Translations under genes and position numbers: made by a program
Virus record (IMG/VR): IMGVR_UViG_2675903468_000002
Location: 1-42,574 of that record
Strand: one strand, 5' to 3'
Length of the DNA: 42,574 nt
From: a virus
Taxonomy: Duplodnaviria; Heunggongvirae; Uroviricota; Caudoviricetes
Shown here: positions 1 through 42,574 of the stretch, piece by piece
Numbering within the stretch: the stretch's first letter is position 1
How the letters are laid out: the number at the start of each line of letters is the position of its first letter
Notes under the pieces: generated by a model
The model's database searches: none
Told to the model about the DNA's origin: nothing
What the model saw: the letters and a program-made list of their open reading frames with translations, nothing else

Positions 1-1875
1 GCCAGACGGAACGGTATCTGATGGCCACGGGATTGGTGCGCCAGGCGGATAAAACTGCTCTGATGGCGTATAGAGTGAATAAACTGTACCGTCCGTTAAC
101 CCTTCCGGCTTATTAGCAGAATATGCTGGTGACGTATGAATCGTCACGCTGGCATTACTGGTATAATCCCATTGAATATTTACACCAGTCGCATAATTTC
201 CGATTGCAACGTAAATATCGTAAGTATCACCAGATGTATTAACCCAGGCAAAATTTGTAAACCCTGTCAATGTGCGCTGCCATAAAGCACCAGTAATCCC
301 CTTCGGATTACCATTACCTGCACGTAAAACAAGTTCAGATATACCTGCCTGTTGAGGTGACCCCACGTTAAATCCAGCGCCACCAATCAACGTAATTGAA
401 ACAACAGAACTCGCCTGTGGCATGGTTACCGTTGCTAATTTGAACCAACCAGCACCACCGCTGAATGACATTGTTGTTGAGTTAAGCGTACCAATATCTT
501 TCGGCGTCAGTGTTATATCCGCTGAAAGCGCCTTACCATTCACCTTACGGGCAGAAGGTACCCGACCATTCGCATTGTCATTAGCTGCTTTCACTGCTTT
601 CGGTGTCGCAGCAAGCGTTTCAGATGTGCTGTTGGTTGCACTACTGAGCTGGACAATTCCTTTTTGTGCTGTCGTAGCGTCCTGTGCGGTGTATTTCCCG
701 TTAGCCAGGTCATACGCGGCCTTAACGGCTTTTGGCGTTGCCGCCTGTGACTCGGAAGTGCTGTTGGTCGCACTGCTGAGCTGTACTACCCCCTTTTTCG
801 TCGTGCTCGCATCCTCAAGCGCCACGGCGGATGCAATATCCTCTGCACGTTTTGCCGAATTTTCTGCACGTATTGCCGCCGCTTCTGCCGCACTTTTGCT
901 CTGCGATGCTGATACCGCACTTCCCGCAGCCTCTGTCGCCTTCGTGGATGCCGTTGACGCACTCCCCGCCGCCGCTGTTTTTGCGTCTGCCGCGGCAGAG
1001 GCGCTCCGTTCCGCTGCTGTTTCAGATGACCTGGCATTCGTCTCGGACGTTTTTGCCGCCTTCGCGGAATTTCCTGCCGCTGTTGCCGAGGAAGCTGCGC
1101 TACTGGCGCTCGAGGATGCGTTCGTTTCTGATGATTTTGCCGCCTCTTTTGAAGCCGCCGCATCCCGGGCTGAGGTGGCAGCTTCTGACGCTTTCGTAGT
1201 CGCGGTGGATGCAGAAGTGGCTGCTGATTGTTGTGACGCTGCAGCATTCGTTTCTGACGTTTTCGCGGCACTGGCACTGGTAGCTGCCGCGCTTTTTGAG
1301 GACTCTGCAGCGGCAGCACTTTTTTCCGCTTCAGTGGCCTTTGTTGATGCCGTTCCTGCGCTGGAAGTCGCTGACTGAGCCGACGACGCGGCCTGTCCGG
1401 CTGACGTGCTGGCTGCGCGTGCTGAGCCTGCAGCATCAGTCGCATGGGTTGCCGCCTCACGGGCTGATGTGCTGGCATCACTGGCTGACTTCTTCGCGGC
1501 TGCCGTGTTCTGTGCCACCACGGACGCGTTACGCGCCACCTCTTCCACCATCAGCTCAAAACGGCGCAGTGCCTCCGGACGGGCATCATCCTCCGTCATG
1601 GCACCGAGAAAATCATTCAGCGTACCGGGTCGGGAATCTTCATACACTGTGATGGTCCCGGCATGTGACGGCGGGAATCCTTCCACCAACAGAATAACGC
1701 TGTACTGACCGTACTCAACGTCCATACTGTAACGCCCGGCTTCATCCGGATTTTCAGATGCCAGCGTGTTCACCACCACCGTGGTACTGTTACGTTTTGC
1801 TTTCAGCTGGATTGTGCAGTTCTGTACCGGTTTTCCTGTGCCGTCTTTCAGTACACCTGAAATTTTTACTGCCAT
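1..1875 (-). CDS. stf: Side tail fiber protein, partial (3' end lies beyond window start)
   Basis: Minus-strand frame from ATG at 1875 translates MAVKISGVLKDGTGKPVQNCTIQLKAKRNSTTVVVNTLASENPDEAGRYSMDVEYGQYSV..., with Ala/Ser-rich repeats and the paired KKGVVQLSSATNSTSE / QKGIVQLSSATNSTSE motifs as in lambda Stf; open to position 1. Absent from the ORF track because it has no stop in the window. Confidence 0.85.
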   Translation of the reverse strand, partial: MAVKISGVLKDGTGKPVQNCTIQLKAKRNSTTVVVNTLASENPDEAGRYSMDVEYGQYSVILLVEGFPPSHAGTITVYEDSRPGTLNDFLGAMTEDDARPEALRRFELMVEEVARNASVVAQNTAAAKKSASDASTSAREAATHATDAAGSARAASTSAGQAASSAQSATSSAGTASTKATEAEKSAAAAESSKSAAATSASAAKTSETNAAASQQSAATSASTATTKASEAATSARDAAASKEAAKSSETNASSSASSAASSATAAGNSAKAAKTSETNARSSETAAERSASAAADAKTAAAGSASTASTKATEAAGSAVSASQSKSAAEAAAIRAENSAKRAEDIASAVALEDASTTKKGVVQLSSATNSTSESQAATPKAVKAAYDLANGKYTAQDATTAQKGIVQLSSATNSTSETLAATPKAVKAANDNANGRVPSARKVNGKALSADITLTPKDIGTLNSTTMSFSGGAGWFKLATVTMPQASSVVSITLIGGAGFNVGSPQQAGISELVLRAGNGNPKGITGALWQRTLTGFTNFAWVNTSGDTYDIYVAIGNYATGVNIQWDYTSNASVTIHTSPAYSANKPEGLTDGTVYSLYTPSEQFYPPGAPIPWPSDTVPSG

Positions 1876-1882
1876 ATTCACC

Positions 1883-1913
1883 CCACAAAAAAGCCCGCCT
1901 GAACCGGCGGGCT
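1883..1913 (-). terminator. Intrinsic terminator between lom and stf
   Basis: 8-bp stem AGCCCGCC/GGCGGGCT with 6-nt loop, followed on the minus strand by TTTTTTGTGGGG. Confidence 0.55.
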
Positions 1914-1939
1914 GTCATAACACTGTGTTACCTGGCTAA

Positions 1940-2605: not shown

Positions 2606-6007
<3,402 letters not shown>

Positions 6008-8058: not shown

Positions 8059-8391
8059 TCATACCACGACCTGTTCAAAATTTGCGGTTACCGTGACCCA
8101 CAGCGCCCCCACACTGGACGACCATTTACGGCAGACCACCCGGACAGGTGTCCAGCCATAAGGCGGTATCCACTGAAACGCCCTGACCCCACCGTGCCGG
8201 GCCAGAAACGCTTCCAGCGCCTGATGCTCCCCTTTACGGACACGGATCGTGACACTGTACGTTGGCAACAGAGAATTCAGTCCTGCCGGACGACGCTGTT
8301 CATAACCATCGCCCAGTTTAACTGTCACCACTTTTGGCTCTGAATCCACCTTCATATCCGGACGGACTTTCCAGCTAAATATCTCCATCAC
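8059..8391 (-). CDS. M: Minor tail protein M
   Basis: 110 aa; size and position between H and L as in lambda. Confidence 0.85.
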   Translation of the reverse strand: MMEIFSWKVRPDMKVDSEPKVVTVKLGDGYEQRRPAGLNSLLPTYSVTIRVRKGEHQALEAFLARHGGVRAFQWIPPYGWTPVRVVCRKWSSSVGALWVTVTANFEQVVV

Positions 8392-23510: not shown

Positions 23511-24056
23511 TTAAACCACCACGCGCTCTTTCATCCAGCCATAGACAAACGACTCATTGGCCTCGCGTTTCTCTGCCAGCTCCAGATAACGCTCGCCCTG
23601 CGTACAGTTCAGGGCTTTCACCAGTACCAGTTCACCATCCCTGCTGCGATTTTTCAGATATGCCCGTAATGCATTAAGAGTACGCGGCCCGATGCGTCCA
23701 TCAGCATCCATATCCGGATAGAGTTTCCCGCGCAGGTTGAAAACGTTCAGCCAGCGCTGAAGCATTCTGGACGCCACAGTTGGCCCCATGTTCACGCCCG
23801 TATCGCACAACTCTGCGGCAATATCAGGAGACAGGTCCTCAACCTGGTCGAATCGTGGTCCGTACCAGTAGTCCGCCTCGAGTATTTCCAGCGCCTGCCC
23901 ACGCGTCAGGTCACGCATATCGCCCTGATAACCGTGTGCACGGGCAACTTTTTCAGTGATGCCCCATTTAGTCGGACCACCTTTATCATCCGGGTGATTG
24001 ACGTAACCGCCCTCTTTTCCCAGAATTTCGTCAAAAATTTCATCTTTCGACTTCAT
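23511..24056 (-). CDS. Endolysin, glycoside hydrolase family 108-like with peptidoglycan-binding C-terminus
   Basis: Start MKSKDEIFDEILGKEGGYVNHPDDKGGPTKWGIT is the characteristic GH108 N-terminus; sits directly downstream of the holin-like genes. The ORF-track start at 24077 is a TTG. Confidence 0.75.
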   Translation of the reverse strand: MKSKDEIFDEILGKEGGYVNHPDDKGGPTKWGITEKVARAHGYQGDMRDLTRGQALEILEADYWYGPRFDQVEDLSPDIAAELCDTGVNMGPTVASRMLQRWLNVFNLRGKLYPDMDADGRIGPRTLNALRAYLKNRSRDGELVLVKALNCTQGERYLELAEKREANESFVYGWMKERVVV

Positions 24057-24057
24057 A

Positions 24058-24336
24058 TCAGCGCCTTCGTAATACAAGGATTTTTGATACGTTCCCGCGT
24101 GCTCGTATCACCAGCACGCAGAACACCAGGTTAATCAGGACGACCAGCCAGTTACCGGGTGGAAAGCGACCACACAGATAACAAAGCGGCGCAAAGGCAT
24201 AAAGCAGCATCAGCAGCCAGGCCAGCCACGACATCAGCGGTTTATGTCTCGACTCACCACGACGATAAAAAAAGAGCGTCAGCACGATAACCGTGCTTAA
24301 CACCACATTCAGTAATCCGGGAAGGTTACTTAACAT
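24058..24336 (-). CDS. Membrane protein with ~3 TM segments between holin and endolysin (possible second holin or antiholin)
   Basis: 92 aa, hydrophobic (LLNVVLSTVIVLTLFF, LAWLLMLLYAFAPLCYL, LVVLINLVFCVLVI); overlaps both neighbours. Confidence 0.45.
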   Translation of the reverse strand: MLSNLPGLLNVVLSTVIVLTLFFYRRGESRHKPLMSWLAWLLMLLYAFAPLCYLCGRFPPGNWLVVLINLVFCVLVIRARGNVSKILVLRRR

Positions 24337-24951: not shown

Positions 24952-25377
24952 TCACAGGTACTGCTCCAGCGGCAACTGCAGCGCCTGCGCAATTTTCTTG
25001 AGCTGTGCTTCTTCATCCGGACCAATGCCATCCTGGTCTGCAATATCCAGACACAGGCACAGCACATCAACCGCTTCGGCGGTTCCTGCCACATCAGCCA
25101 GTTCTCGCAAAGCCTGAGCATTCGCACTACGAGGCGATGCTTCATAACGGGCGCGGATATTCGCGCTCATCTGGGCAATCTCACCGGAGAACGGCGCAAA
25201 GGCAGGAAGTGTTGCAATGGTTTTCTCCAGTACCGCAATTTCTTTCGCGTCACAGGTGTCGTCAGCGTATGCAATGGAATACGCGCCCCAGACGGTCGCC
25301 TCCACCGCGTCGCGGTTCTCCATTTTCTTCACTTCAGTAATAGCCTTACGGGTTTTCTTTTTGAAAATACCAAACAT
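24952..25377 (-). CDS. TerB-like (tellurite-resistance TerB fold) protein
   Basis: Start MFGIFKKKTRKAITEVKKMENRDAVEA; helical acidic protein resembling the TerB domain family, assigned from recalled sequence features only. Confidence 0.4.
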   Translation of the reverse strand: MFGIFKKKTRKAITEVKKMENRDAVEATVWGAYSIAYADDTCDAKEIAVLEKTIATLPAFAPFSGEIAQMSANIRARYEASPRSANAQALRELADVAGTAEAVDVLCLCLDIADQDGIGPDEEAQLKKIAQALQLPLEQYL

Positions 25378-25576
25378 CGTGACTTTTCCTTTTAGTGGGT
25401 GAGCCTCGCCCCGGGATGAGCAGCCCACAGAGAAAGTCACACTGACCATCCCGTAAGCTCCCCCCCCTGAAAGGCTCTGTGGTTTTTTGATGTGCGCCGG
25501 GCGTGGCGCAGATATGAAAAAGGCCACGCACGTGCGCAGCCTGATAATTTTCTGAATCAGCGGAGTGTCAGCTGGT

Positions 25577-26748: not shown

Positions 26749-27795
26749 TTAAAAATCTTTCGTTATTTCTCTGACCGTCTGATTAAAACGTTCCTCTTCC
26801 AGTTCCACGCCAATCGCCCTGCATCCCAGCGACAGTGCCGCTTTTATTGTCGACCCCGACCCCATAAAAAAATCTGCGACCAAATCGCCTGGACGGCTGC
26901 TGGCAGTAATTATCTGACGCAACATATCCGCCGGTTTTTCACAGGGATGCTTACCCGGATAAAACTGCACGGGCTTGTGCGTCCAGACATCCGTATAAGG
27001 AACGACAGCCGATACGGAAAAATAACGCCGCAGTGATTTGTATTCCTCCAGCAGGCTGGCATATTGCCGGTTCAGTTCGCTGTATGTGCTGACCAGCTGG
27101 TGGTGTGGCTGCTCCAGTTCACCGCGCTGGTGTTTTTCTGCCACCACACGTGCAAACAGCGCCTGCAGTTTACTGTAATCGGCCTCATTCGGTAACTGCC
27201 ACTGACTGGTACCAAACCAGTGCGAAGCCATGTTTTTCTTTCCGGTGGCTTCTGCTATCTGTTTTGACGTTATCCCCAGTGATTCGCGCGCATCACGAAA
27301 GTAAGAAATCAGCGGGGCCATGACATGCTGCTTAAGCTCGCGCCCCTTTGCTGCATAACCGTCACTTTTGGGCTGGTATGGCCCCTGATAATGTTCGGCA
27401 AACAGAATGCGCTCTGTTGCCGGGAAATACGCCCGCAGGCTTTCCTTGTTGCACCCATTCCAGCGTCCGGACGGCTTCGCCCAGATAATGTGGTTCAGCA
27501 CATTAAAGCGTTCACGCATCATGATTTCGATATCAGATGCCAGGCGATGACCACAGAACAGGTAGAGACTTCCGGCAGGTTTCAGTACCCGCCAGAACTG
27601 CGCCAGACACTGAGCCAGCCATTTCAGGTAATCATCGTCCCCCTTCCACTGGTTATCCCAGCCCTCGGGCTTCACTTTAAAGTATGGCGGGTCTGTGACT
27701 ATCAGATCGACAGAGTTTTCCGGTAAGGTCCGGATAAATTCCAGGCAATCAGCGTTGATTAACTCACAACTGGATATTTTTACAGTATTAGCCAT
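26749..27795 (-). CDS. DNA methyltransferase (N6-adenine or N4-cytosine, beta-class), apparently orphan
   Basis: 348 aa; motif IV DPPY (LIVTDPPYFKV) near the N-terminus and AdoMet motif I FxGxG (DFFMGSGST) near the C-terminus; no adjacent restriction endonuclease candidate. Confidence 0.85.
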   Translation of the reverse strand: MANTVKISSCELINADCLEFIRTLPENSVDLIVTDPPYFKVKPEGWDNQWKGDDDYLKWLAQCLAQFWRVLKPAGSLYLFCGHRLASDIEIMMRERFNVLNHIIWAKPSGRWNGCNKESLRAYFPATERILFAEHYQGPYQPKSDGYAAKGRELKQHVMAPLISYFRDARESLGITSKQIAEATGKKNMASHWFGTSQWQLPNEADYSKLQALFARVVAEKHQRGELEQPHHQLVSTYSELNRQYASLLEEYKSLRRYFSVSAVVPYTDVWTHKPVQFYPGKHPCEKPADMLRQIITASSRPGDLVADFFMGSGSTIKAALSLGCRAIGVELEEERFNQTVREITKDF

Positions 27796-28143: not shown

Positions 28144-28650
28144 GTCTTTTTCCCTTTTCCGGTTAACGTGACATACCAATAACTCTTGTCGAAAAAGCCA
28201 GCAAGCTGAAAGACCGGTATTCGTAACCACCAGCACGTTTAACGTCCTGTGCCGTTTTTCGGGTACAAAAAACAGCCCGACGGCGGTTTTAAGGAAGGAG
28301 TCGAAGCAACCACTCTTAACATCATAATTGAATTTTTACGTACGTAAACCACAAATACGCCACTCAAATGTTAATGCTCTATAACAAAACCAAACATGCG
28401 AATAACACATATTACACCAAATACATCATTGTTATTTTTCAATGAAAAATGAGTAAATAATGTATTTCATTAATTAAATTCCGCATTACACAAAAATATC
28501 GACAAATTACACCAACGCGCATAAATGAGATCTTGATCATATTATCAATCACTAAATTAAACTTGCCTCTTGAAATAACCACATTGATTAGATGAATATT
28601 TATCGCGCAGTGACATCATTTTTTAAAATAGTTCAAAAAAAGGGTTCGTG

Positions 28651-29760
28651 ATGAAAAAATTAACGGTGGCAATTTCTGCTGTGGCTGCATCAGTATCAGT
28701 ACTGATGGCGATGTCTGCTCAGGCAGCAGAGATTTATAATAAAGACAGCAACAAGTTGGATCTGTACGGAAAAGTTAATGCTAAGCACTACTTCTCCTCT
28801 AACGATGCAAATGATGGCGACACAACTTATGCTCGTCTGGGTTTCAAAGGCGAAACTCAGATCAACGATCAACTGACTGGTTTCGGTCAGTGGGAATATG
28901 AATTCAAAGGAAACCGTACTGAAGAACAGGGAGCAGCCAAAGATAAAACCCGTCTTGCATTTGCAGGGCTTAAATTCGGTGACTACGGCTCCGTCGATTA
29001 CGGTCGTAACTACGGTGTAGCATACGATATCGGTGCATGGACTGACGTTCTGCCAGAATTCGGTGGAGATACTTGGACCCAAACAGATGTATTCATGACT
29101 GGTCGCACCACTGGTGTTGCAACTTATCGTAACAACGACTTCTTTGGTCTGGTTGATGGTCTGAATTTTGCTGCACAGTACCAGGGTAAGAATAATCATG
29201 ATCGTAGTAGCTTAGATAACTACACCAAAGGCAATGGCGATGGTTTTGGTTTCTCTGCGACCTATGAATACGAAGGTTTCGGCATTGGTGCAACGTATGC
29301 GAAATCTGATCGTACCGACACTCAAGTCAAATTGGGTAAACTTCTCCCAGGAGTATTTGCTTCCGGCGAAAATGCAGAAGTCTGGGCTGCAGGTCTGAAA
29401 TACGACGCAAACAACGTTTATCTGGCAACAACCTATTCAGAAACCCAGAATATGACTAAATTCGCAGATTACTTTGTGGCTAATAAAGCACAAAACTTCG
29501 AAGCTGTTGCACAATATCAGTTCGATTTCGGTCTGCGTCCGTCTGTTGCTTATCTGCAATCAAAAGGTAAAGATCTTGGCATTTTTGGTGACCAAGATTT
29601 AGTCAAATATGTTGATGTTGGCGCAACTTATTATTTCAACAAAAATATGTCTACATTCGTTGATTACAAAATCAACCTGCTTGACAAAAATGACTTTACT
29701 AAAGCTCTTGGTGTAAACACTGACGATATCGTTGCTGTAGGTATGGTATACCAGTTCTAA
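28651..29760 (+). CDS. nmpC: Outer membrane porin, NmpC/Lc/OmpC family (phage-encoded)
   Basis: [25 protein letters not shown] signal peptide then [24 protein letters not shown]...ending VGMVYQF; trimeric-porin hallmarks; closely matches recalled DLP12 NmpC; opposite strand to Q and lysis genes as in DLP12. Confidence 0.95.
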
Positions 29761-29940: not shown

Positions 29941-30324
29941 TTAATTAAGCTTAGTAACATCAATATCCATCTCTAAGCAAATGTCTAATGCCATTAACAT
30001 ACCTTCGATTATTCCCTCTGCTTTCTGTAACCTTTTCCCGATATACCCATCAGAGCAATTATGCTTCCGCGCCAGCATCATAAACGTCATCCCACCAACA
30101 TAATAATCCACCAGCAAATCATGTAAGCCATTGTTGCTCTTTTTCAGACAGGCCATACATCCACAAATGATCATCGCGTCATCGTCACAGCATTGCGGAC
30201 GAGATCTTACTTTTGAAGGAATTAATCCCTTAAAACCGGCGGCAACGGACGACCAGGTCACATCTTCATGATTATTAGCCGCCCACGCTCCCCAACGCTC
30301 AAGAACCATCTGAATATCACGCAT
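29941..30324 (-). CDS. Q: Late-gene antiterminator Q (phage 82 / DLP12 QuuD type)
   Basis: 127 aa, [24 protein letters not shown]...[18 protein letters not shown]; matches recalled QuuD; located just upstream of the porin, as quuD-nmpC in DLP12. Confidence 0.85.
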
Positions 30325-30581
30325 CAGCGCAGTACCTCCTGCACCAGTTTTTCAAACTTTCCAACTTTGGTTTCCAGCTCTGCCACACAATCCACCAGCT
30401 CATCCACTGCTTTTTGTGCGCGGTGTTTCGCCTGCATCAGTTCCCTGAGCGCTGGCACCATATCCTTACGAATGGCATCTTTTGTTACGCCTGTCTTTTC
30501 CAGTTGTTCCGCCTGTCGTAACATTTCCTGTGCCTGTTTACGTAATTGTTCAGGCGTAAAAGTCATGGTCTGGTTGTTCAA
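30324..30581 (-). CDS. Small helical protein of unknown function
   Basis: 85 aa, charged coiled-coil-like sequence; start overlaps the DnaB stop. Confidence 0.5.
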
Positions 30582-31969
30582 AAGAAACGCTCCATCTTAC
30601 TGCTGTCGGTTCGCTTATTGCTGTATCTGCGCGGCTGGGGCTGCTGCATTGGGGTGGAAAGAATCTGTGCGCTTTCCTGGTCTACGGGCAGAAAATGTCC
30701 GTTATAAAAACGCCGGTAAATCGTCCCCAGAGAACCGTTACGTTGTTTCGTGATATTGATTTCTGCAATGCCTCTGGCCTGCGTATCCGGGTTGTACACT
30801 TCATCCCTGTAAAGCATCAGAATGATGTCTGCATCCGCCTCTATTTCTCCGGAATTTTTCAGGTCTGAGTTCATAGGGCGTTTATTGGGCCTGGACTCCA
30901 CACCACGGGAAAGCTGGCTCAGCGCAATCAACGGAAAACCACCGGATTTTGCCAGGCCTTTAAGCCCCTTTGAGATTTCACCCACGGCAAGGTCATGACG
31001 CCCCGTGGTTCGGGTTTTTATCAGCCCGAGATAATCAACCACCACCAGCGCCGTTTCCGGATGTTTAATCAGGTGATGTTTCGTTGTTGCGCATATCTCA
31101 TCAATGGTCAGGTTCGCCTGGTCCACCATCCAGATATTGCGCCCGGTCATCCGCCCCACTCCTTGTGAGAAACGTGCCCAATCTTCGTCTTCAAAGTGAG
31201 TGACAGATTTCAGGCGTGATACCGGCATTCCTCCAGCCGCAGATACCATGCGTTCACCAATCTGGATGTTCGCCATTTCCATTGTGAACAGAAGAACACC
31301 ATGCCCCTGCTCAGTCACCTTGTCGATGATATCCAGCGCCAGTTCGGTTTTGCCCATTGACGGACGAGCCGCAATAAATACCAGGTCGCCGGGAACCATG
31401 CCACCTGTTTTTGCGTCCAGTTCATCAATACCGGTCATCAACGTCCTGGATTTCTCCAGTCCCTGATTCCGGCATTCAACACGCTCAACCACTTCCGGAA
31501 GCACATCATCAATATGTACCGGCTGAATAGCGCCCTTTTCCGTCGACAATGAGGCCATCATGTTCTGCGCATCCTTCAGAGCATCTTCAGCCGCTTCACA
31601 GGTATGCGCATCACGTAATTTCTGCAGCGCCTCATTCAGCGTTTTTTCTGCATCGCGCAATGCGGCATTGCGCCGCAACGCTGCAACATAGTGCTCCAGT
31701 GAAGACTTCACCCAGGTTTTGCGCCCGGTATCAGTAATCACCGGGGCAAGTTCCGGCATCTCATTACACAACAGCACAGGGTCAATCACGCCTGAAACAC
31801 GGGCCTGTCTGCAGATGCCTGTGTAGATATCCCGATACGCTCGTACAGAAAAAACGTCCGCAGGTAGTGTGGCCAGAATATCCATCACTTCAGGATCTGC
31901 CCCACGCAGAAAGAACGCGCCAATGACAGCGCCTTCCAGGTCATCGTTACGCCAGACTGGTGTTGTCAT
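30578..31969 (-). CDS. Replicative DNA helicase, DnaB family
   Basis: 463 aa; N-terminal DnaB domain, Walker A ARPSMGKTELALD, and RecA-like C-terminal domain. Confidence 0.85.
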   Translation of the reverse strand: MTTPVWRNDDLEGAVIGAFFLRGADPEVMDILATLPADVFSVRAYRDIYTGICRQARVSGVIDPVLLCNEMPELAPVITDTGRKTWVKSSLEHYVAALRRNAALRDAEKTLNEALQKLRDAHTCEAAEDALKDAQNMMASLSTEKGAIQPVHIDDVLPEVVERVECRNQGLEKSRTLMTGIDELDAKTGGMVPGDLVFIAARPSMGKTELALDIIDKVTEQGHGVLLFTMEMANIQIGERMVSAAGGMPVSRLKSVTHFEDEDWARFSQGVGRMTGRNIWMVDQANLTIDEICATTKHHLIKHPETALVVVDYLGLIKTRTTGRHDLAVGEISKGLKGLAKSGGFPLIALSQLSRGVESRPNKRPMNSDLKNSGEIEADADIILMLYRDEVYNPDTQARGIAEINITKQRNGSLGTIYRRFYNGHFLPVDQESAQILSTPMQQPQPRRYSNKRTDSSKMERFF

Positions 31970-32853
31970 GCAGCCACACCTCTGATACGAGAACGGTAGC
32001 TGGGCCAGTTAAACGACAACCAGTTGCGCCCCCCGTCTGTGATCCTGTCGGCAATGCGGGGGCTGATGAACGCCCACAACTCTTCCGGTGAAAGGTTGCT
32101 GATCAGGATGGTGGGCAGGATGCTTTCGTACCGGGCATTGATAATTTCCTGCAAAATAGCCATTTCAGCCGCGCTGCCAAACTGAACGCCGACTTCGTCG
32201 ATGATCAGCAAATCCAATGACGCATAATGCTCAATAACTTCATCCGCTGTTTTTTCGCTGTCATTCCGCCAGCAGTTTTTCACAGCACGGGTAAGGCGCA
32301 TCACATCAGTAATCTCCACACTGGCCAGATGGTTACGGATGATGTGTTTTGCCATAGCCACAGCCAGATGATTTTTTCCGGTACCACAACTGCCTGTCAG
32401 AACAAGACTGGTACCGTTAGCCAGAACATCCTCCCAGCTCTCTGCATAGCGGCGGCAGGCAGCAAGATTTCTGGCTGCATCAGAGTTAATCTCCTGATAG
32501 TTTTCAAACTCACAGTCGCGAAACCTACAGGCAACACCAGCATTCTCAATCAGCACATCAGCTTTCATTGCAACCAGAGTCCGATGTGTCACATCCATTT
32601 CATCCACCAGACACTCCGGACAGCGGGAAATTTTTGAGACAGCGCCCCCCTGCCGATCATCCCACACCAGTATATGCGTACGATATTTACCGTGTTTTTC
32701 GCAGCATCCAACCCCTTCAGATTCCCGGCAGGCGCGGTAAGGCCATGGCTTTTCGCCATTCTGAGCAAATGCAATCTCTGCCCGTAACTCATCCATTCGC
32801 GCCTGTAGTCTTGTTTGTTTCTCACGTTGGTTAATCGTCATCATCGCTGTCAC
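31966..32853 (-). CDS. DnaC/IstB-like AAA+ helicase loader with N-terminal Cys-rich region
   Basis: Walker A GSCGTGKNHLAVA, Walker B LLIIDEVG; Cys cluster CCEKHG...CPEC in N-terminus. Confidence 0.8.
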   Translation of the reverse strand: MTAMMTINQREKQTRLQARMDELRAEIAFAQNGEKPWPYRACRESEGVGCCEKHGKYRTHILVWDDRQGGAVSKISRCPECLVDEMDVTHRTLVAMKADVLIENAGVACRFRDCEFENYQEINSDAARNLAACRRYAESWEDVLANGTSLVLTGSCGTGKNHLAVAMAKHIIRNHLASVEITDVMRLTRAVKNCWRNDSEKTADEVIEHYASLDLLIIDEVGVQFGSAAEMAILQEIINARYESILPTILISNLSPEELWAFISPRIADRITDGGRNWLSFNWPSYRSRIRGVAA

Positions 32854-32854
32854 C

Positions 32855-33847
32855 TCAGAATGTCAGTTTGTCACTGGATTTACCGAATTTGTCAGACATG
32901 GCTCCCAGGCCAGCCAGGACATCGACCTGTCGCTGTCGCCCACCTCCGGGAGCGGCTGGCTGTTGCCAGTAATCTTCGAAGTGACGATCGGGTCCAAAGA
33001 ACGTCGCAGCCTGCTTCACGAACTGTGTGCCGGTATTTCCTGTAGCACGTACCCAGGCGGCATACCGCTTCACACCATCAAGCATGGTCTCCGGTTTTAT
33101 TCCCTCCCTGATACGGGCTTTCCAGGCTTTGAAGGCTGCTGACTTGGAATTACCACCAGCACGTTTGGGATATTCCTGCCAGGCCTGTTCAAATTCCGGT
33201 GAATATTCCTGTCGGGCAGAACGCGCTGGTGCAGACGCGTCAGCGGATGCTCCAATAGTGTTTTTAGTCTCCGTTGTAATCTCTGTAGTAATCTCTGTAT
33301 TTGTATCAACATTCGGCGTATCCCCTGTTCCGTTATGACGTTGGGGGGTGTTCCGTTTTAACGTAATAGCTGTATCGCTGATTGAGTTATTGCTGTTACT
33401 TTCTGGCGAAACAGAAGAAGGTGTGGTGATGGCAGCAATTGCCTGTGGGTTGATCCCGACAAACAAAATATTGCTGCATTTCACCCCGTCTAGCATTTCC
33501 ACCGTACGTAAATCCAGAGTAATAAACCCAGCATCACGAAGACGCTTCAGCGCATCTGCGGTTTCCCTTTTCCCAAAGCCAAACTGTTCAGCAAACGCCT
33601 GATAGCTTCTTTGCAGCTTGTCACCCTGAAAACGCTTGCGATATCCCAGTAAAGCCCCGGTATGCTCATCCCTGACTTCTGTCGGGCGGTACCAGTAAAC
33701 AATCTCTGAAAGCAGCGCAATGGCAGTCGCATCCGGACGACCACTTGGTAGCCGAATATGTTTCCACCAGTTCGCTGGTGTGACATTGCCAGAAATATTG
33801 AGTTGGCCAATAGCCATAACTTCAGGTGTAGGAGCGTAACGGCTCAC
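32855..33847 (-). CDS. Replication initiator (lambda O-like organiser) with internal ori-like repeats
   Basis: 330 aa; GTG start with GGAGG RBS; low-complexity linker TNTEITTEITTETK encoded by DNA direct repeats; position upstream of the helicase loader. Confidence 0.6.
   Translation of the reverse strand: MSRYAPTPEVMAIGQLNISGNVTPANWWKHIRLPSGRPDATAIALLSEIVYWYRPTEVRDEHTGALLGYRKRFQGDKLQRSYQAFAEQFGFGKRETADALKRLRDAGFITLDLRTVEMLDGVKCSNILFVGINPQAIAAITTPSSVSPESNSNNSISDTAITLKRNTPQRHNGTGDTPNVDTNTEITTEITTETKNTIGASADASAPARSARQEYSPEFEQAWQEYPKRAGGNSKSAAFKAWKARIREGIKPETMLDGVKRYAAWVRATGNTGTQFVKQAATFFGPDRHFEDYWQQPAAPGGGRQRQVDVLAGLGAMSDKFGKSSDKLTF
33266..33360. repeat. Iteron-like direct repeats (candidate origin of replication) inside the initiator gene
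   Basis: Tandem GTAATCTCTGTA x2 (33276-33299) with flanking partial copies, plus TGTTCCGTT repeated at ~33326 and ~33349. Confidence 0.4.
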
Positions 33848-34068
33848 ACGGCACCTCCCAGACGCTTAAACATTTTTCCAGACAGAAATACCGCCAGCGG
33901 GTAACTGATGGTGTAGCTACGCCCCTGTAGTTCGCACACGACTTTCTGGCTTTCAGCGTTGACTAGGCAAACCCGCAGAACGTGACCGTTGCTGGTGGCG
34001 AACCACTGCCCCACACGGGGGCAACGGTTGTATCGGTGATACAGGGAATTAACGATGCGGCGAATCAT
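33844..34068 (-). CDS. Small hypothetical protein
   Basis: 74 aa with strong AGGAGG RBS; function unknown. Confidence 0.5.
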   Translation of the reverse strand: MIRRIVNSLYHRYNRCPRVGQWFATSNGHVLRVCLVNAESQKVVCELQGRSYTISYPLAVFLSGKMFKRLGGAV

Positions 34069-34616
34069 GGGTGCGCCTCCTTGTCAGAACCATTAAGTCT
34101 GGAATCAACAAGTGCAGCGCCAAAAACAGCATCTCCTACACGGTCATACAGCTTGCTCGCCAGCGGAGATTCAACGGCCTTAAGCATGGGGTAAAGCTGG
34201 CTTTTCCAGATTTGATGGATTTCACGCAAATGCAGGTATACGCCTCTGGCGTTTCGTGCAACAGCTGACATATCAACCGCGTCAGCACCAGATAAATTCT
34301 TCTCCATCTGGTTAAAGGCGTTGATGTATGCCTCTTTGAACCGGGCTGCACGTTTGCCAGTAAAGCCCATTGCCAGGAACGCGAAGCCATCGCGGGTGAT
34401 TTGATAGCAAGGTAGTTTGCGGCCTGTGCAATCGGTGTAATCACTCACCGAAAAATTGCGGGCAGTGAATGATGCGGAGCATTCAAGCGTGCGGATCTTT
34501 TTCAGTACATCGTCATGACGTTTGGAGAAGAAGTTGGCAACAGCCAGGGATGAAGTAACAGCCTGACCATCAACGATGGCAATTTCAGGTTGAGTGAGGG
34601 TTGGGATCGTAGCCAT
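34065..34616 (-). CDS. Rha-family phage regulatory protein
   Basis: Start MATIPTLTQPEIAIVDGQAVTSSLAVANFFSKRHDDVLKKIR with AAGAGG RBS; Rha-type domain. The ORF-track extension to 34937 starts with TTG and contains a terminator, so it is not used. Confidence 0.7.
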   Translation of the reverse strand: MATIPTLTQPEIAIVDGQAVTSSLAVANFFSKRHDDVLKKIRTLECSASFTARNFSVSDYTDCTGRKLPCYQITRDGFAFLAMGFTGKRAARFKEAYINAFNQMEKNLSGADAVDMSAVARNARGVYLHLREIHQIWKSQLYPMLKAVESPLASKLYDRVGDAVFGAALVDSRLNGSDKEAHP

Positions 34617-34632
34617 GATGGCAGCCTCTTTG

Positions 34633-34658
34633 GTGATTTTAAATAACTCACCACCAAG
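34633..34658 (-). promoter_or_regulatory. Inverted repeat overlapping a candidate promoter just upstream of the Rha gene
   Basis: GGTGA-ttttaaataac-TCACC palindrome within an AT-rich TTATTTAAAAT stretch ~20 nt upstream of the Rha start. Confidence 0.3.
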
Positions 34659-34781
34659 GCTTTCCACGACCTTATTGGTGGTGAGACGTACAGGGGTGGA
34701 AATACCGGTCACCAAAGAACCCGGCCCAACCGAAGTTGGCCCTGCACGCCCCACCATAATTTGGGCGTAATGCTGCTCATG

Positions 34782-34808
34782 ACACAAAAAAACCGCAAGA
34801 GCGCGGTT
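34782..34808 (-). terminator. Intrinsic terminator downstream of the Lar-like gene
   Basis: Minus strand AACCGC-GCUCUU-GCGGUU followed by UUUUUUUGUG. Confidence 0.6.
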
Positions 34809-34933
34809 GTGCGCTTTGGTGAATTCCGGGTTTCCACGCCCGGCACCCGCTTTATAAGGTGCTGGAATAGTGTAACGTCCCGAAATTGCAGAATCAATAT
34901 GTTGGTTGCGGATCATTTTGTACCTACTCGCCG

Positions 34934-35143
34934 TCAATCCGCGTTTTCGCGCTGATTCCAGTCATGAACAGCACGTTCTTTCGAATCAGGGATCTGGTTT
35001 GCGTTACAGCAAGTACATGCGACGTAATAACCATCATCGCCATCCAGAAAATATTTCACCTCAATGAGTTGTACTTCCGGATTTCCGCAGAACGGGCAAG
35101 GTTTCAGATCGACATCACCAGTTACACACGTCTTGGTTTGCAT
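34934..35143 (-). CDS. Small zinc-ribbon protein, Lar-like restriction-alleviation family candidate
   Basis: 69 aa with CPFCG...CTCC cysteine motif; TAATG overlap with the upstream antirepressor gene suggests translational coupling. Confidence 0.5.
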   Translation of the reverse strand: MQTKTCVTGDVDLKPCPFCGNPEVQLIEVKYFLDGDDGYYVACTCCNANQIPDSKERAVHDWNQRENAD

Positions 35144-36003
35144 TATTTGTTCTCCTGTAAAAGATTCGCGAGCTCAGTGTTATGGGTAAACAGCCCATCC
35201 CATGTTTTCTTCATCGGTAGTTCACCGTTCAGATAATGGCGATATAACCAGGCGGCACCTTTTTTCTTCAGGAGTGGTTTGAAAATCTCGCGCATTTCCC
35301 CGTTTTCCTGCTCAACCTGCCCAGAACGCTCAGTCAGGTATTGGTCACGTGCATACGCTTTTACACGCCAGCGCGGATACATAGCCTCCGGACGGTCGTC
35401 ATACAGCCAGTTACGCTCTTCAAGGAACGCATTAATCTGACGAGTGTTTACACCGTTGAGTTGTTTGCAGAACTGCACAGGAGTGATGCCATCGGCGAGA
35501 TGGCTTTCGAGTTTGCTGATGTAGCGAGCCTGACGCTCTGCATACCCGAGAGCAAGGCGTTCGGATTTTTTGGCTTCAATCCACGCTTCAGCAGCAGCGA
35601 TCGGATCGTCAAAGTCTGGAATAGTGTTTGAAGAAGGCGTTGCTTTACGAAAATACGCCTGCTCCATTTTTTCGAAGAACGACCAGGCCTCGTCTGTATC
35701 GACGATTTTTGACATGCGGGCAGCGCCGCGTTCTGTCCAGAGAGTGAGTGAACGCGCATTTCTTCCAACAGAGTGACCAATAGTCACTCTGTCCTTAAAT
35801 GCTTTCAGGGCATCACCAGTTAAAAGAAAATAATGTTTCCCATCTTCAAAGCGCTCAAGATTGCGCGACAGATTTTTACGGATATTAGCTTCATCCGTGC
35901 CATATCCCGCCGCCAGCGTTTCAGTGGTAACTACGCGTACCCCCTGCCACTCAATCACTGGCAGGTTTTCAGGGTTGACTAATTTTTGTTTATTGATCAT
36001 CAT
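35143..36003 (-). CDS. Antirepressor-like protein (ORF6N/Bro-N-type N-terminal domain, KilA-C-like C-terminus)
   Basis: 286 aa; N-terminal LPVIEWQGVRVVTTETLAAGYGTDEANIRKNLSRNLERFEDGKHYF resembles phage antirepressor N-domains. Confidence 0.6.
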   Translation of the reverse strand: MMINKQKLVNPENLPVIEWQGVRVVTTETLAAGYGTDEANIRKNLSRNLERFEDGKHYFLLTGDALKAFKDRVTIGHSVGRNARSLTLWTERGAARMSKIVDTDEAWSFFEKMEQAYFRKATPSSNTIPDFDDPIAAAEAWIEAKKSERLALGYAERQARYISKLESHLADGITPVQFCKQLNGVNTRQINAFLEERNWLYDDRPEAMYPRWRVKAYARDQYLTERSGQVEQENGEMREIFKPLLKKKGAAWLYRHYLNGELPMKKTWDGLFTHNTELANLLQENK

Positions 36004-36078
36004 GAAATCCCCTTACTAATCAGAATAAGTCGGGCTGACGGAGTGCGGCCCGGCTTTTCTTTTTCGTTCAGTAACCGT

Positions 36079-36378
36079 TCATCGCGTGGACATTTCTGAT
36101 GAATCACTCTGCCCATCTTCCGTGCGCGCTAGGCTTGGATTTGAAATTTTGCGTAACGAATCAGGAATTCCATCTTCAGGGTGAGGATAAAGATCTGGCC
36201 TTAAGCCATGTGGCGTGACCTTCCATGCAACTACTTCACATACGCGTAAAACAAAACGAGCAGGAATTGTGTTTTTTGAAAACCACTGATTCACCGCTTG
36301 CGGAGTTACACCAAGGTTTCGTGCAATGGCATTTTGCGCAATTAATGCGCGAAGTACGTCGTAATCATTTCCTTTCAT
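36079..36378 (-). CDS. Cro-like HTH regulator (first gene of the rightward early operon)
   Basis: 99 aa; HTH LRALIAQNAIARNLGVTPQAVNQWF; divergent from the cI-like gene across a 133-bp operator region. Confidence 0.65.
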   Translation of the reverse strand: MKGNDYDVLRALIAQNAIARNLGVTPQAVNQWFSKNTIPARFVLRVCEVVAWKVTPHGLRPDLYPHPEDGIPDSLRKISNPSLARTEDGQSDSSEMSTR

Positions 36379-36511
36379 AGCAAAACACCAATATTAACTT
36401 GATAACACAAGAATATATCAAGATTAAATTAACATGCAAGTTGCAAAAGGATCGAATACACTAAAATCAAGTAAAGATTTATCCTTGTAAAGAAACCCAC
36501 AGGACCTGGTC
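36379..36511. promoter_or_regulatory. Immunity operator/promoter region (OR-like) with divergent promoters
   Basis: Minus-strand promoter TTGCAT-16-TATATT; plus-strand candidate TTGCAA-15-TAAAAT; inverted repeats built on CTTGAT/ATCAAG half-sites (for example CTTGATAACACAAGAATATATCAAG). Confidence 0.5.
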
Positions 36512-37201
36512 ATGAAGAACGTCAAAAACACGGAAAATCGAATAGCCGCGATGCTGAAAGCAAAAGGATGGACTCAGGCTCAACTGGCCCGCAAGTTAGG
36601 TGTGAGTGCGCAATCAGTGCAGTACTGGACAACAGGAAAAACATTTCCACGGAGTGATAAGCTCGCGCATTTATCAGAGATTAGCGGTTATCCACAATCC
36701 TGGTTCTTAGGTGAAGACTCCTCACCAACCTTTTCCTCGCAAGAGAAACACCAGACAAGAACAGATAGCGTCGTGTTTAATGTCCTTGATGTTGAGTTTA
36801 GTTGCGGTGATGGAACTCATGTCCGTGGTGACTTGATAGATGTAGTGCGCTCAATAGAACTTGATCCTGAATATGCCCGACGTCTTGTTGGAAATCGGGC
36901 ATTCAAAAATATAGAAATAGGTAACGCCAGAGGAGACAGTATGGCTCCCACAATCTCACCTGGCGACCTTCTTTTTCTTGATAAGACAGTAACTTATTTT
37001 GATGGCGATGGTATTTATGCATTTTGTTTTGATGGAGAATGCTACGTGAAAAGGCTTCAAAAAATTGGAAGCAAAATCATGGTGTTATCTGATAACCCCA
37101 ATTATCAACCATGGAGCATCGAAAAAGAGGGGTTAGCTCTGCTTTATATCCAGTCTAAAGTGATCTCATCAGTACCATTCAACATAAACAGATTTGGTTA
37201 G
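36512..37201 (+). CDS. cI: CI-type prophage repressor (HTH plus LexA-like S24 autopeptidase domain)
   Basis: 229 aa; HTH GWTQAQLARKLGVSAQSVQYWTTGK; C-terminal S24 domain with GDSMAPTISPGDLLFLDK and downstream Lys. Confidence 0.85.
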   Translation: MKNVKNTENRIAAMLKAKGWTQAQLARKLGVSAQSVQYWTTGKTFPRSDKLAHLSEISGYPQSWFLGEDSSPTFSSQEKHQTRTDSVVFNVLDVEFSCGDGTHVRGDLIDVVRSIELDPEYARRLVGNRAFKNIEIGNARGDSMAPTISPGDLLFLDKTVTYFDGDGIYAFCFDGECYVKRLQKIGSKIMVLSDNPNYQPWSIEKEGLALLYIQSKVISSVPFNINRFG

Positions 37202-37212
37202 TCTTTGATTTT

Positions 37213-37236
37213 AACGGGCTTTGCCCGTTTTTTTCT
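37213..37236 (+). terminator. Intrinsic terminator after the repressor gene
   Basis: AACGGGC-TTT-GCCCGTT followed by TTTTTTT. Confidence 0.7.
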
Positions 37237-37264
37237 GCCTGAAATATACGATATCAATTTTTTC

Positions 37265-37293
37265 TTGACAGCCTATTTCCCAAAGCATAATAT
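37265..37293 (+). promoter_or_regulatory. PL-like early-left promoter with operator-like palindrome
   Basis: TTGACA-17 nt-TAATAT; flanked by ATCAAT and the ATCAATTATAACTTGAT palindrome sharing half-sites with the OR region. Confidence 0.5.
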
Positions 37294-37346
37294 CGCACCA
37301 TCAATTATAACTTGATTTAATTCAATTTAAAATTGTTGGTGGATAT

Positions 37347-37799
37347 ATGAAGACACTAAAAGCAACTCCAGAAACAACTAATTTTATCAACTGCGGCTGT
37401 GTTACGCTTAAGGGCTTAGAACTTGATTCCTTTGCATTAAATATTGCAAATTTGCTAAGTGCTGTACGCACATTCCATCTTCTGGATTGTGCTCGCTCAA
37501 AGGAACTGGGCATTGAGGTAATGGAATTTATCCATGAATATGCTCTATCTGCTGCTTCTCCTGCACAACAAAAACAATCCTTCCCTGAAAGCTGGCTGGT
37601 TAACCTTCGCACCCAACGCGAAGCCTGCGGCTTAACAACAGCCGAACTCGCCAGGCTGCTCGCTCTTGATGAAGAAATCATCATCCAGTGGGAGAGCGGA
37701 GAGTATGAACCAACCATCAGTATGCTTATCCCACTGGCAAATATTCTTGGCTGCGATCCGATGTGGTTATTGACTGGTAGCAATGCTGCAAAGGAGTAA
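37347..37799 (+). CDS. HTH (XRE-type) protein with N-terminal domain of unknown function; first gene of early-left operon
   Basis: 150 aa; C-terminal HTH CGLTTAELARLLALDEEIIIQWESGEYEPT; not Arg-rich and not N-like. Confidence 0.6.
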   Translation: MKTLKATPETTNFINCGCVTLKGLELDSFALNIANLLSAVRTFHLLDCARSKELGIEVMEFIHEYALSAASPAQQKQSFPESWLVNLRTQREACGLTTAELARLLALDEEIIIQWESGEYEPTISMLIPLANILGCDPMWLLTGSNAAKE

Positions 37800-37804
37800 C
37801 AGCA

Positions 37805-37996
37805 GTGAATAGTAATATCCATGACAATTTCGAAGGTATTTGTCTGGCATCGGATTCATTTGCAATAAACATTCATAGTCTGTTGTGCGCTGCGCAAGTT
37901 TTACAGATGTCAAATAATCAGAATGCAAAAACATTAGGTGATGAAATCCTGTCTTTTGCATGTGAATATTCGAAAGCTGCAGTCAAAAAGAATTAG
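37805..37996 (+). CDS. Small protein paralogous to the N-terminal domain of the preceding HTH protein
   Basis: 63 aa; GTG start 8 nt after an AAGGAG RBS that overlaps the upstream stop; shares DSFA-NI, LL, K-LG-E, F--EY pattern with residues ~25-70 of the upstream protein. Confidence 0.5.
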   Translation: MNSNIHDNFEGICLASDSFAINIHSLLCAAQVLQMSNNQNAKTLGDEILSFACEYSKAAVKKN

Positions 37997-38073
37997 CGCA
38001 ATAACAATAAATATTCACTGAATGTTTATTACGGTTTTATCGCCGGGGATTGTTGCAACCTTTATTCGCAGGA

Positions 38074-39143: not shown

Positions 39144-39332
39144 ATGAGACTGTATTTCACAATAGTAATTTTACTGGCAATTATCGCATGCATTTACGGA
39201 TTACTCGTTCCGTTCCTTATATCCATGAAGGATACGATAGCAGTTATTTCTGGCTTTGCACTGGCGTTTCTGACCCCGCCCTGCATTTATGCCATTTACA
39301 AGGGTCTTTCTTTCGCTAAGGATAAAAGATGA
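39144..39332 (+). CDS. Small two-TM membrane protein coupled to the SPFH gene
   Basis: 62 aa, MRLYFTIVILLAIIACIYGLLVPFLISM...; stop overlaps the SPFH start (ATGA). Confidence 0.5.
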   Translation: MRLYFTIVILLAIIACIYGLLVPFLISMKDTIAVISGFALAFLTPPCIYAIYKGLSFAKDKR

Positions 39333-40156
39333 AAAAAATTATTTTTGCTTTAGCCATTGTTCTGCCGACTATTGGCCTTGTCGGTTGCGATCGCGTTGAA
39401 CCAGGTAATGTTGGCATCAAGGTAAATAAACTGGGCGACGACAAAGGCGTCGGTGAGGTGGTCGGTGTTGGTCGCTACTGGACTGGCTGGAATACTGAAG
39501 TTTATATCTTCCCCACCTTCAAACAAATGAAGACCTACGATGAACCGTTCAGTTTCCAGATGAGTGACGGTACAACCATCGGCTATCACATTGGCGTGGC
39601 CTACAAAGTTGATCCATCCAAAGTTACCACGGTGTTTCAGACCTACCGCAAAGGCGTGGATGACATTACCGACACTGACCTGCGCCAGAAGATCGCCGAC
39701 GCACTCAACCGACTGGCCAGCAAAATGACCACTGACAAATTTATCGACGGCGGCAAGTCTGAGCTGCTGGATGAAGCTCTTAAAGACATTCAGGCAGAGA
39801 TGACACCTATCGGTATTCAGGTAATGAGCCTCTCATATGTGGGTAAGCCGGAGTACCCGCCAACCGTTATCGACAGCATTAATGCCAAAGTCACGGCAAA
39901 CCAGAAAACCCTGCAGCGCGAGCAGGAAGTCAAGCAACGTGAAGCGGAGGCCAACATGCTACGTGCGGAAGCTGCCGGACAGGCTGATGCCATTCGAACA
40001 AAAGCCCAGGCAGAAGCCGATGCCATTCGTTTACGCGGCGAAGCTCTACGCCAGAACCCAGGCGTCATGGAGCTGGAAGCCATCAACAAGTGGAACGGTA
40101 CACTGCCGCAATACATGACCAGTGGTGCCAATACACCATTTATCCAGATTAAATAA
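39329..40156 (+). CDS. SPFH/band-7 (prohibitin/HflKC-like) domain lipoprotein
   Basis: 275 aa; lipobox LVGC after signal peptide; SPFH-like core followed by Ala/Glu/Arg-rich coiled coil (REQEVKQREAEANMLRAEAAGQADAIRTKAQAEADAIRLRGEA). Confidence 0.7.
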   Translation: MKKIIFALAIVLPTIGLVGCDRVEPGNVGIKVNKLGDDKGVGEVVGVGRYWTGWNTEVYIFPTFKQMKTYDEPFSFQMSDGTTIGYHIGVAYKVDPSKVTTVFQTYRKGVDDITDTDLRQKIADALNRLASKMTTDKFIDGGKSELLDEALKDIQAEMTPIGIQVMSLSYVGKPEYPPTVIDSINAKVTANQKTLQREQEVKQREAEANMLRAEAAGQADAIRTKAQAEADAIRLRGEALRQNPGVMELEAINKWNGTLPQYMTSGANTPFIQIK

Positions 40157-40999: not shown

Positions 41000-41254
41000 A
41001 TGCAGACAATCATCTATCAAATAACACCAAGTAAATGGTGTACAGAAAGCACCCTCATTGCTTCGACAGGGCTAAAACCAGGCACCATTGAGCGAGCCAG
41101 GAAAAAATCATGGCTACAGGGGAAAGAATATCGACATTACGCTGTCGATGGAATTCCGAAGAGCAACAGTGAATGCGTATACAACATAGAGGAAATTATG
41201 CGCTGGATCGAAAATCAGAAACAACCAGGTGTTAAAAATGCAAGTTCCGGTTAA
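41000..41254 (+). CDS. xis: Excisionase-like protein
   Basis: 84-aa basic protein immediately upstream of and co-oriented with the integrase; GAGG RBS. Confidence 0.5.
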   Translation: MQTIIYQITPSKWCTESTLIASTGLKPGTIERARKKSWLQGKEYRHYAVDGIPKSNSECVYNIEEIMRWIENQKQPGVKNASSG

Positions 41255-41287: not shown

Positions 41288-42574
41288 ATGAGTAATACAT
41301 CATACCCAACAGGCGTTGAAAATCATGGCGGATCACTCCGCATATGGTTTCACTATAACGGCAAACGTGTCAGAGAAAACCTCGGTGTTCCTGACACCGC
41401 CAAAAACCGGAAAATCGCAGGTGACCTCCGCACTTCCGTTTGTTTTGCAATCAGAATGGGGAGTTTCGACTATGCAGCACAGTTCCCTGAGTCCCCTAAC
41501 CTGAAACACTTTGGTCTGGGGAAAAGAGAGATAACCATTAAAGCACTTTCGGAAAGATGGCTTGAACTGAAGAAAATAGAGATTTGTGCAAATGCACTTA
41601 ACCGTTACCAGTCAGTAATTAAAAACATGTTGCCAATGTTAGGTGAAAAAAGACTGGTTTCATCTGTAACAAAAGAGGATTTGCTTTTCGTAAGGAGAGA
41701 TCTGTTGACCGGTTATCAAAAGCTTTCTAACGGAAAAATTTCTTCCATAAAAGGACGCTCAGTGGTCACAGTAAACTACTATATGACAACCATAGCTGGA
41801 ATGTTTCAATTTGCAACAGATAATGGTTATACATCAGGAAATCCATTTAACGGTCTGACACCATTAAAAAAGTCCAAGATAGAACCAGATCCCCTCACCC
41901 GTGACGAATTTATTCGTTTTATTGAGGCTTGCCGTCATCAACAAACAAAAAACCTGTGGATTATCGCTGTATACACGGGTATTCGTCACGGGGAGCTGGT
42001 ATCACTGGCCTGGGAAGATATAGACCTTAAAGCGAGGACTATAACCATCCGCCGGAATTATACAAAACTAGGCGAATTCACTCCACCAAAAACTGATGCT
42101 GGTACCGGAAGAACGATTCATCTAGTTCAACCAGCTATTGATGCTCTTAAAAGCCAAGCGGAAATGACCATGCTTGGAAAACAGCATTCTGTAGAGGTAA
42201 AGCAGAGGGAATATGGGAGAAGTACTGTGCATAAATGCACTTTTGTTTTTAGTCCTCAGGTAATAAAACAGCGGCAGTTTTCCGGACCGCACTATAAGGT
42301 TGACTCCATCAGGGAGTCATGGACAAGTATCTTAAAACGCGCAGGTCTGAGACACAGAAAATCGTATCAATCCAGGCATACCTATGCATGCTGGTCACTT
42401 GCCGCAGGAGCTAATCCTAGTTTTATCGCAAGCCAGATGGGCCACACAAACGCACAAATGGTATTCAATGTTTACGGAGCATGGATGAAAGACAACAATC
42501 ACGAACAAATAGAACTTCTTAACAGAAGACTATCTGAAAGTGTCCCATGCATGCCCCATAAGAAAGCGGGGTAA
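41288..42574 (+). CDS. int: Tyrosine-type site-specific integrase
   Basis: 428 aa; catalytic-domain motifs including GIRHGEL (Arg), HxxR-type RHTYACW and the tyrosine in VFNVYGAWM; stop codon is the last 3 nt of the window. Confidence 0.9.
   Translation: MSNTSYPTGVENHGGSLRIWFHYNGKRVRENLGVPDTAKNRKIAGDLRTSVCFAIRMGSFDYAAQFPESPNLKHFGLGKREITIKALSERWLELKKIEICANALNRYQSVIKNMLPMLGEKRLVSSVTKEDLLFVRRDLLTGYQKLSNGKISSIKGRSVVTVNYYMTTIAGMFQFATDNGYTSGNPFNGLTPLKKSKIEPDPLTRDEFIRFIEACRHQQTKNLWIIAVYTGIRHGELVSLAWEDIDLKARTITIRRNYTKLGEFTPPKTDAGTGRTIHLVQPAIDALKSQAEMTMLGKQHSVEVKQREYGRSTVHKCTFVFSPQVIKQRQFSGPHYKVDSIRESWTSILKRAGLRHRKSYQSRHTYACWSLAAGANPSFIASQMGHTNAQMVFNVYGAWMKDNNHEQIELLNRRLSESVPCMPHKKAG

Follow-up and report, generated by a model that had tools for sequence, protein, structure and literature searches.

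A window on an stx-less lambdoid prophage ends at its integrase stop codon: a probable mlrA (yehV) attachment site and candidate arm-type repeats within int

Where does a prophage insert when its available sequence stops on the last base of its integrase gene, and how much of its attachment site can still be read? Both questions are raised by the 42,574-base stretch of DNA analysed here in full, which we refer to as the window. It is a lambdoid prophage with a cI-like S24 repressor, Q, a GH108 endolysin, terminase, portal, tail genes, J, Lom and Stf, and its rightmost gene is the tyrosine integrase gene int (41288..42574, + strand; 428 aa, ATG start), whose TAA stop codon occupies the final three bases, 42572-42574. 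A preliminary description of this DNA had likewise placed the integrase outermost on the right with the window ending at its stop, and had concluded that the attachment sites lie outside and that the insertion site could not be judged from the window. That interpretation is partly supported, being largely right but too pessimistic. We consider it highly probable that this region is the int-proximal integration module of an stx-less lambdoid prophage, in which the crossover core and the target gene mlrA would lie just past the edge and a set of arm repeats would bind Int.

The gene identities at this end are established. The integrase carries an arm-binding domain (PF12167, Arm-DNA-bind_2; aa 7-70, nt 41306-41497; Pfam, E 1.3e-24) and a catalytic domain (PF00589, Phage_integrase; aa 203-396, nt 41894-42475; Pfam, E 6.5e-18), and when aligned with solved tyrosine recombinases it matches Tn1549 Int at E 5e-8 and lambda Int (PDB 1z1b) at E 3e-3. 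Residues R233, K268, R363, H386 and Y396 stand at the catalytic positions, as placed by motif and a single pairwise alignment, to Tn1549 Int. Box II (aa 360-363, window 42365-42376) reads YQSR, with Y360 replacing the first His of HxxR, and a Tyr is likewise found at this position in IntR of the Rac prophage (YHTR). The excisionase gene xis (41000..41254, + strand; 84 aa; DUF1233, PF06806, Pfam E 7e-31) is located 33 bp upstream of int, and the copies in relatives are annotated as excisionase or xisR. With its arm-binding and catalytic domains and adjacent Xis, the window Int is, on domain content, a lambda-type heterobivalent tyrosine integrase. An identical 1287-nt int coding sequence is annotated in public genomes, and the integrases of the mlrA-type phages JLK-2012, Stx2a_WGPS2 and PhiR5_1 are 95-96.5% identical to it in amino acid sequence. 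We also note, some 1.1 kb before int in the early-left region, a 275 aa SPFH/Band_7 protein (39329-40156, +) that has a lipoprotein-like N-terminus (MKKIIFALAIVLPTIGLVGC) and is kept in all lysogens with this integrase.

The DNA that follows int can be read in relatives. Four complete E. coli chromosomes match the last 2 kb of the window at 100% identity, and two more do so at 99.8-99.9%. In the three chromosomes examined, a 5'-truncated mlrA (702 nt vs 732 nt in K-12) starts 20 bp past the int stop and is followed downstream by yohO, yehWXY, osmF and bglX. The same layout of int, truncated MlrA, yohO and yehWXY was recovered in 10 of the 10 assemblies sampled by an exact-protein look-up of Int, and positions +1..+73 past the int stop are invariant in all ten. 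Among 5,426 complete E. coli genomes, 458 contain the whole of a 300-nt query that spans the int-mlrA junction; the remaining genomes match this query from base 183, so that host homology begins at +33. Comparison of the two junctions in strain E21845/O/A, the second of which adjoins btsS, reveals a 21-bp direct repeat, the core CCCTGTCACGTTACGCGCGTG, present at both. On the int side, in genomes with a 100%-identical int end, the core is at +38..+58 from the last base of the window, and the unoccupied site in K-12, CCTGTCACGTTACGCGCGTG, corresponds to mlrA nt 49-68 (codons 17-23).

The preliminary description had recommended a search of the flanks for a tRNA or direct repeats. The flanks of relatives show the 21-bp direct repeat; there is no tRNA in the window, and none adjoins the integrase in any lysogen examined. 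A tRNA as the integration target is rejected, and the target is the protein-coding gene mlrA/yehV. The attachment core and target do fall outside the window as had been stated, the core at +38..+58 and the target beyond, but two probable arm-type repeats lie inside it (42541-42558). As to the insertion site, the earlier view is contradicted: we are highly confident that the site would be predictable from the integrase itself, because the int-mlrA junction is seen in ten of ten assemblies with the identical Int and in 458 complete genomes.

With the position of core and target established in genomes carrying the identical integrase, we infer, and strongly, from these flanks that the window's own copy sits in mlrA. 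The sequence expected past base 42574 would be ...AATAAAAACTTGCAAAATCAATTGGTTTACCTTTAATCCCTGTCACGTTACGCGCGTG, with mlrA next. This would begin with 37 bp of phage arm carrying an IHF-consensus-like site, AATCAATTGGTTT, at +16..+28, followed by the 21-bp crossover core at +38..+58 and the rest of mlrA (yehV), such that the right flank should read AATAAAAACTTGCAAAATCAATTGGTTTACCTTTAAT, CCCTGTCACGTTACGCGCGTG and then mlrA from GCAGAGGCGTTACGG. On the left, stf should continue and be followed by tfa, by a far arm containing GTCCCATACATGCCCCA, by a second copy of the core and finally by the mlrA 5' stub adjoining btsS. Transcription of xis and int proceeds toward the prophage end. Int would use its N-terminal domain to bind arm repeats of the form TG(Y)CCCA, of which the near arm has two (within the window, in the 3' coding end of int) and the far arm three, at 114-144 bp past the core, and its catalytic domains would act on the core; IHF would probably bend the DNA and Xis would provide directionality, as in lambda. 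Integration would split mlrA at codons 17-23, within a MerR-type helix-turn-helix.

No match to the whole window was found among the complete E. coli genomes or the sampled assemblies. Its left 25 kb is matched at best at 97% in the complete E. coli genomes, in a mosaic fashion, and in the sampled assemblies with the identical Int the first mismatch to the window occurs 6-2180 bp from the right end. The window could instead be an excised or virion genome, or derive from a lysogen at a secondary site, with an intact attP or a different host gene following base 42574. The window comes without flanks, and a record identical to it is absent among the genomes and assemblies compared. Free-phage records with an uninterrupted attP are known for close relatives, as in phi330, where near arm, core and far arm follow one another and the arm and core sequences are the same. 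There are also closely related integrases that insert elsewhere at a comparable core, that of yecE agreeing at 14 of 20 positions. However, the identical Int adjoins mlrA in all ten sampled occurrences, with the junction present in 458 complete genomes, and we regard an origin of this kind as very unlikely; moreover, the first 58 bp past the edge (arm and core) would be the same in either case and the position of the core unchanged. In phi330 (PV189401.1) the 20-bp core CCTGTCACGTTACGCGCGTG is found twice in tandem, at positions 4366-4405 of the examined locus, which may be an artefact of joined prophage ends or a real duplication.

At the other end, the left edge was correctly described as falling inside stf. 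The N-terminal 638 codons of this gene (1..1914, - strand; phage_tail_N, E 6.8e-72, and Phage_fiber_2) form a frame that runs off the window at base 1. Window positions 1-720 are 100% identical to stf of other prophages, for example in O26:H11 11368 and strain cq9, in which stf is 2,961 nt long. The equivalent of window base 1 is located 639 nt before its stop, and a 576-nt tfa comes next. The tail fiber assembly gene and the far attachment site are thus missing, as had been noted, the identical copies showing about 639 nt more of stf and then tfa. In E21845/O/A the distance from tfa to the far copy of the core is about 470 bp and includes a dinI remnant. We relied on the O26 11368 and cq9 copies for the left flank and rejected strain TK3046, in which the similarity of stf to the window begins only near base 570 and the prophage is at tRNA-Ser near hyaA. 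The 1-720 segment is 100% identical in many unrelated prophages, and the copies inspected adjoin tfa and a Pin-type invertase (pinQ).

The left cut is likely a contig break at a repeat, because it falls in a segment that 3389 of 5426 complete E. coli genomes carry, the median being two places and the maximum seven per genome. The right cut, on the last base of a stop codon, is not due to chance, and resembles trimming at a gene boundary when the window was made. A defective remnant would offer another account of the left edge, in which the far end (tfa, far arm and second core copy) has been deleted and there is no second att site. Such structures do occur at this site: in the EC11 remnant the int-xis end is joined directly to tail genes, with J and stf frameshifted, and E21845/O/A has a truncated stf and dinI. 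The gene set of the window nonetheless is that of an apparently full lambdoid prophage (int, repressor, replication, Q, lysis, terminase, portal, tail, J, lom and stf), and a cut within a highly repeated segment explains the break without a deletion; a remnant is accordingly an unlikely reading, with little to separate it in probability from an excised genome.

Carriage of Shiga toxin genes was considered as well. The region between the antiterminator gene Q (29941-30324) and the endolysin gene (23511-24077) contains neither stx nor any unassigned ORF of about 315 aa. A Stx-converting phage is rejected: the StxA-sized ORFs in this region are a Gram-negative porin of 370 aa (28648-29760, + strand, opposite to the late genes; PF00267, E 8e-152) and an N6/N4 DNA methylase in the late-operon leader downstream of Q (26749-27795, - strand; PF01555, E 1e-42). 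The porin gene occupies the interval from Q to the lysis region, which is the place of stx in Stx phages, and it resembles the nmpC/lc porin morons of lambdoid phages. Within the lysis region, an ORF of 191 aa (24952-25527, - strand) has a weak TerB match (PF05099, E 1.5e-6) that is just above the cut-off.

Several EHEC prophages use the same mlrA/yehV target, namely Sp15/VT1-Sakai, CP-933V, BP-4795, JLK-2012 and YYZ-2008 (PMC8309913). The int-xis DNA of the mlrA-type EHEC prophages is 90-92% identical to that of the window, with the same arm and core (phi330). They differ in that the window lacks stx, having the porin and methylase instead, and in the mosaic that makes up the remaining genome. 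Lambdoid backbones exchange the int-xis-attP module among themselves. Lysogens with the identical Int differ from the window in their immunity and replication modules (window 30000-38000).

Two tandem repeats, TGTCCCA (42541-42547) and TGCCCCA (42552-42558), both on the + strand and 11 bp apart, are candidate arm-type Int sites in the near (P'-like) arm of attP. Both are within the last 34 bases of the int ORF, in codons for the C-terminal tail ...SVPCMPH.... The far arm in E21845/O/A contains ATGTCCCAT, ATGCCCCAC and ACACCCCAT, also at 11-bp spacing, and in the phage of the window the distance from near to far repeats is 206 bp. The 18-mer comprising the near-arm pair occurs once in the window against 0.03 expected, and near and far arms are alike at 17 of 18 positions, with none of 300 shuffles as good. 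The short motif ATGYCCCAY by itself is about as frequent in the window as expected (2 against 1.9), and the significance is confined to the 18-mer pair and to its reappearance in the far arm. Relative to the core edges, the repeats of the mlrA phage are at -72 and -61 on the near side and +114, +125 and +136 on the far side. With the conservation and geometry of the repeats established, we infer that they bind Int; the repeats at 42541-42558 are probably arm-type Int-binding sites, such that part of attP would be within the window. This is the simplest reading, since the protein has an arm-binding domain.

The arrangement resembles that of lambda, whose P and P' arms have a similar layout of arm sites, with similar tandem spacing and core distances. 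Both have a heterobivalent Int, with xis directly upstream of its gene and attP close behind it. In both, each arm contains tandem repeats, and an IHF-like site separates those of the near arm from the core. The differences are also clear: the similarity to lambda Int is weak, the arm motif and core are different, the near-arm repeats of the window are inside the int coding sequence, and the target is protein-coding and disrupted.

A closer parallel is provided by IntR/XisR of the Rac prophage (K-12, ttcA), which belongs to the same integrase family, relatives of the window genes being annotated intR/xisR, and which has the same attP geometry. Its repeats, TTTGCCCC, are at -66 and -55 from the core edge on the near side and at +107, +118, +137 and +148 on the far side, and an IHF-consensus-like site is found between near-arm repeats and core in both systems (AATCAATTGGTTT here, AATCAACAAATTA in Rac). 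In contrast, the two integrases are just 42.6% identical and the 26 bp Rac core in ttcA is unrelated. The C-terminus of the window Int is 12 aa longer than that of IntR, and this tail (…SESVPCMPHKKAG) is encoded across the repeats; IntR stops before them, and the pair is non-coding in Rac, whereas the window Int reads through.

Four other lineages, yecE, RothC, AsXd-1 and mEp460, show the same pattern. Integrases of the yecE type (e.g. Stx2_12E129_yecE) share 81.6% protein identity with the window Int and those of the wrbA type (933W/VT2-Sakai) 65%. In the Stx2 phage that integrates at yecE, the near-arm pair is unchanged and the far arm is almost identical, but the core, GCCGTCACATTAACTGCGTG, shares 14 of 20 positions with the mlrA core and the host target is different. 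In the Klebsiella phage RothC (72% Int identity), AsXd-1 of Aeromonas (64%) and mEp460 of E. coli (62%) attP is uninterrupted, and TGCCCCA is present at -40 and -29, counting from the first base past the int stop. On the same count, the far copies are at +167 and +178 in all three, as TGCCCCA in RothC and AsXd-1 and as TGTCCCA and TGCCCCA in mEp460, whose far arm is otherwise unrelated. The repeat spacing is thereby kept in six related systems with different cores, Rac included, and in an alignment of seven int 3' ends the 18-nt repeat block is the most conserved block, with 12 of the 26 invariant columns. Next to the core, a far-arm block (TTTAAAAATCGACGAAGATCGTCCAGGAGCGCC) is common to the mlrA, yecE, RothC and AsXd-1 phages, at 33660-33770 of one examined record, at about 1145-1235 on the minus strand of a second and at +50 to +160 after the int stop in two more, and the far arm has tandem 10-bp repeats (TCGACGAACT TCGACGGAGT TCGTCGATAA; in others TTAACGAAAT/TTAACGAACT). 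The block and the 10-bp repeats are possibly Xis or IHF sites; both are absent from the far arm of mEp460.

These comparisons could be explained in other ways. The repeats may have been kept for a different reason: the C-terminal tail of Int may constrain the codons, they may regulate or terminate int, or they may be the relic of an old duplication. In the window they are coding, and most lineages have nearly the same motif, without clean covariation; part of the support could reflect common descent, the motif being the same and not co-varying in most lineages. However, the Rac pair follows the stop codon and is non-coding, as are the far-arm copies in all lineages, and the far arm of mEp460 keeps the motif at the same distance. 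These non-coding copies and the mEp460 far arm speak against common descent as the full account. The 11-bp tandem spacing and core distances resemble those of the lambda arm sites, and Int carries an arm-binding domain, which requires such sites. Retention for some other reason seems rather improbable to us, if less so than either a deleted far end or an excised genome.

Preferring a role as arm-type sites, we can ask how widely it would extend. A plausible generalization, to which we give an even chance, is that the repeat pair together with two to four copies about 207 bp downstream would constitute the arm-type sites of the whole integrase family. That family would embrace the mlrA, yecE, phiP27/RothC, Aeromonas AsXd-1 and mEp460 types and Rac, and possibly the wrbA/933W type. 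The corollaries, that the geometry would be fixed whatever the core and that most members would encode the C-terminal tail of Int by its own binding sites, are equally finely balanced on the sequences compared. No description of the arm-type sites of IntR/Rac or of a family-wide repeat geometry was found in the searchable literature.

For the host, integration leaves a 22-codon mlrA 5' stub by btsS, ending at a TGA supplied by the phage. The remainder of mlrA, which starts at codon 17, comes to lie behind int and has lost its promoter and start codon. The residues missing or replaced are the start of the MerR-type helix-turn-helix. We note that RefSeq calls the truncated gene an intact 233-aa MlrA (WP_029208330.1) with an ATT start at three lysogen loci (8096-8797 in one). 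Its first 16 codons are gone, including part of the helix-turn-helix, and 15 nt before the ATT there is an in-frame TAA, with neither ATG nor GTG nor TTG between them.

Prophage insertion at this site is reported to be common. A prophage in mlrA (yehV) is carried by 53 of 55 O157:H7 strains and limits csgD-dependent curli and biofilm (PMC3874044), and the Stx1a prophages of Sakai and EDL933 are in yehV (PMC8309913). The element described here is of a known kind at a known site, and the arm-repeat geometry across the family is only a mildly new point. Its wider use is nevertheless practical: the conserved geometry could help annotate attP in this common integrase family, and if the family-wide reading is true, the attP core of many Stx and other lambdoid phages would be locatable from the int stop codon alone. 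For the prophage itself, the integrase alone suffices to assign it to the mlrA/yehV site; a prophage at that site is known to abolish the function of MlrA, the activator of csgD, and thereby to limit the formation of curli and biofilm in E. coli (PMC3874044).
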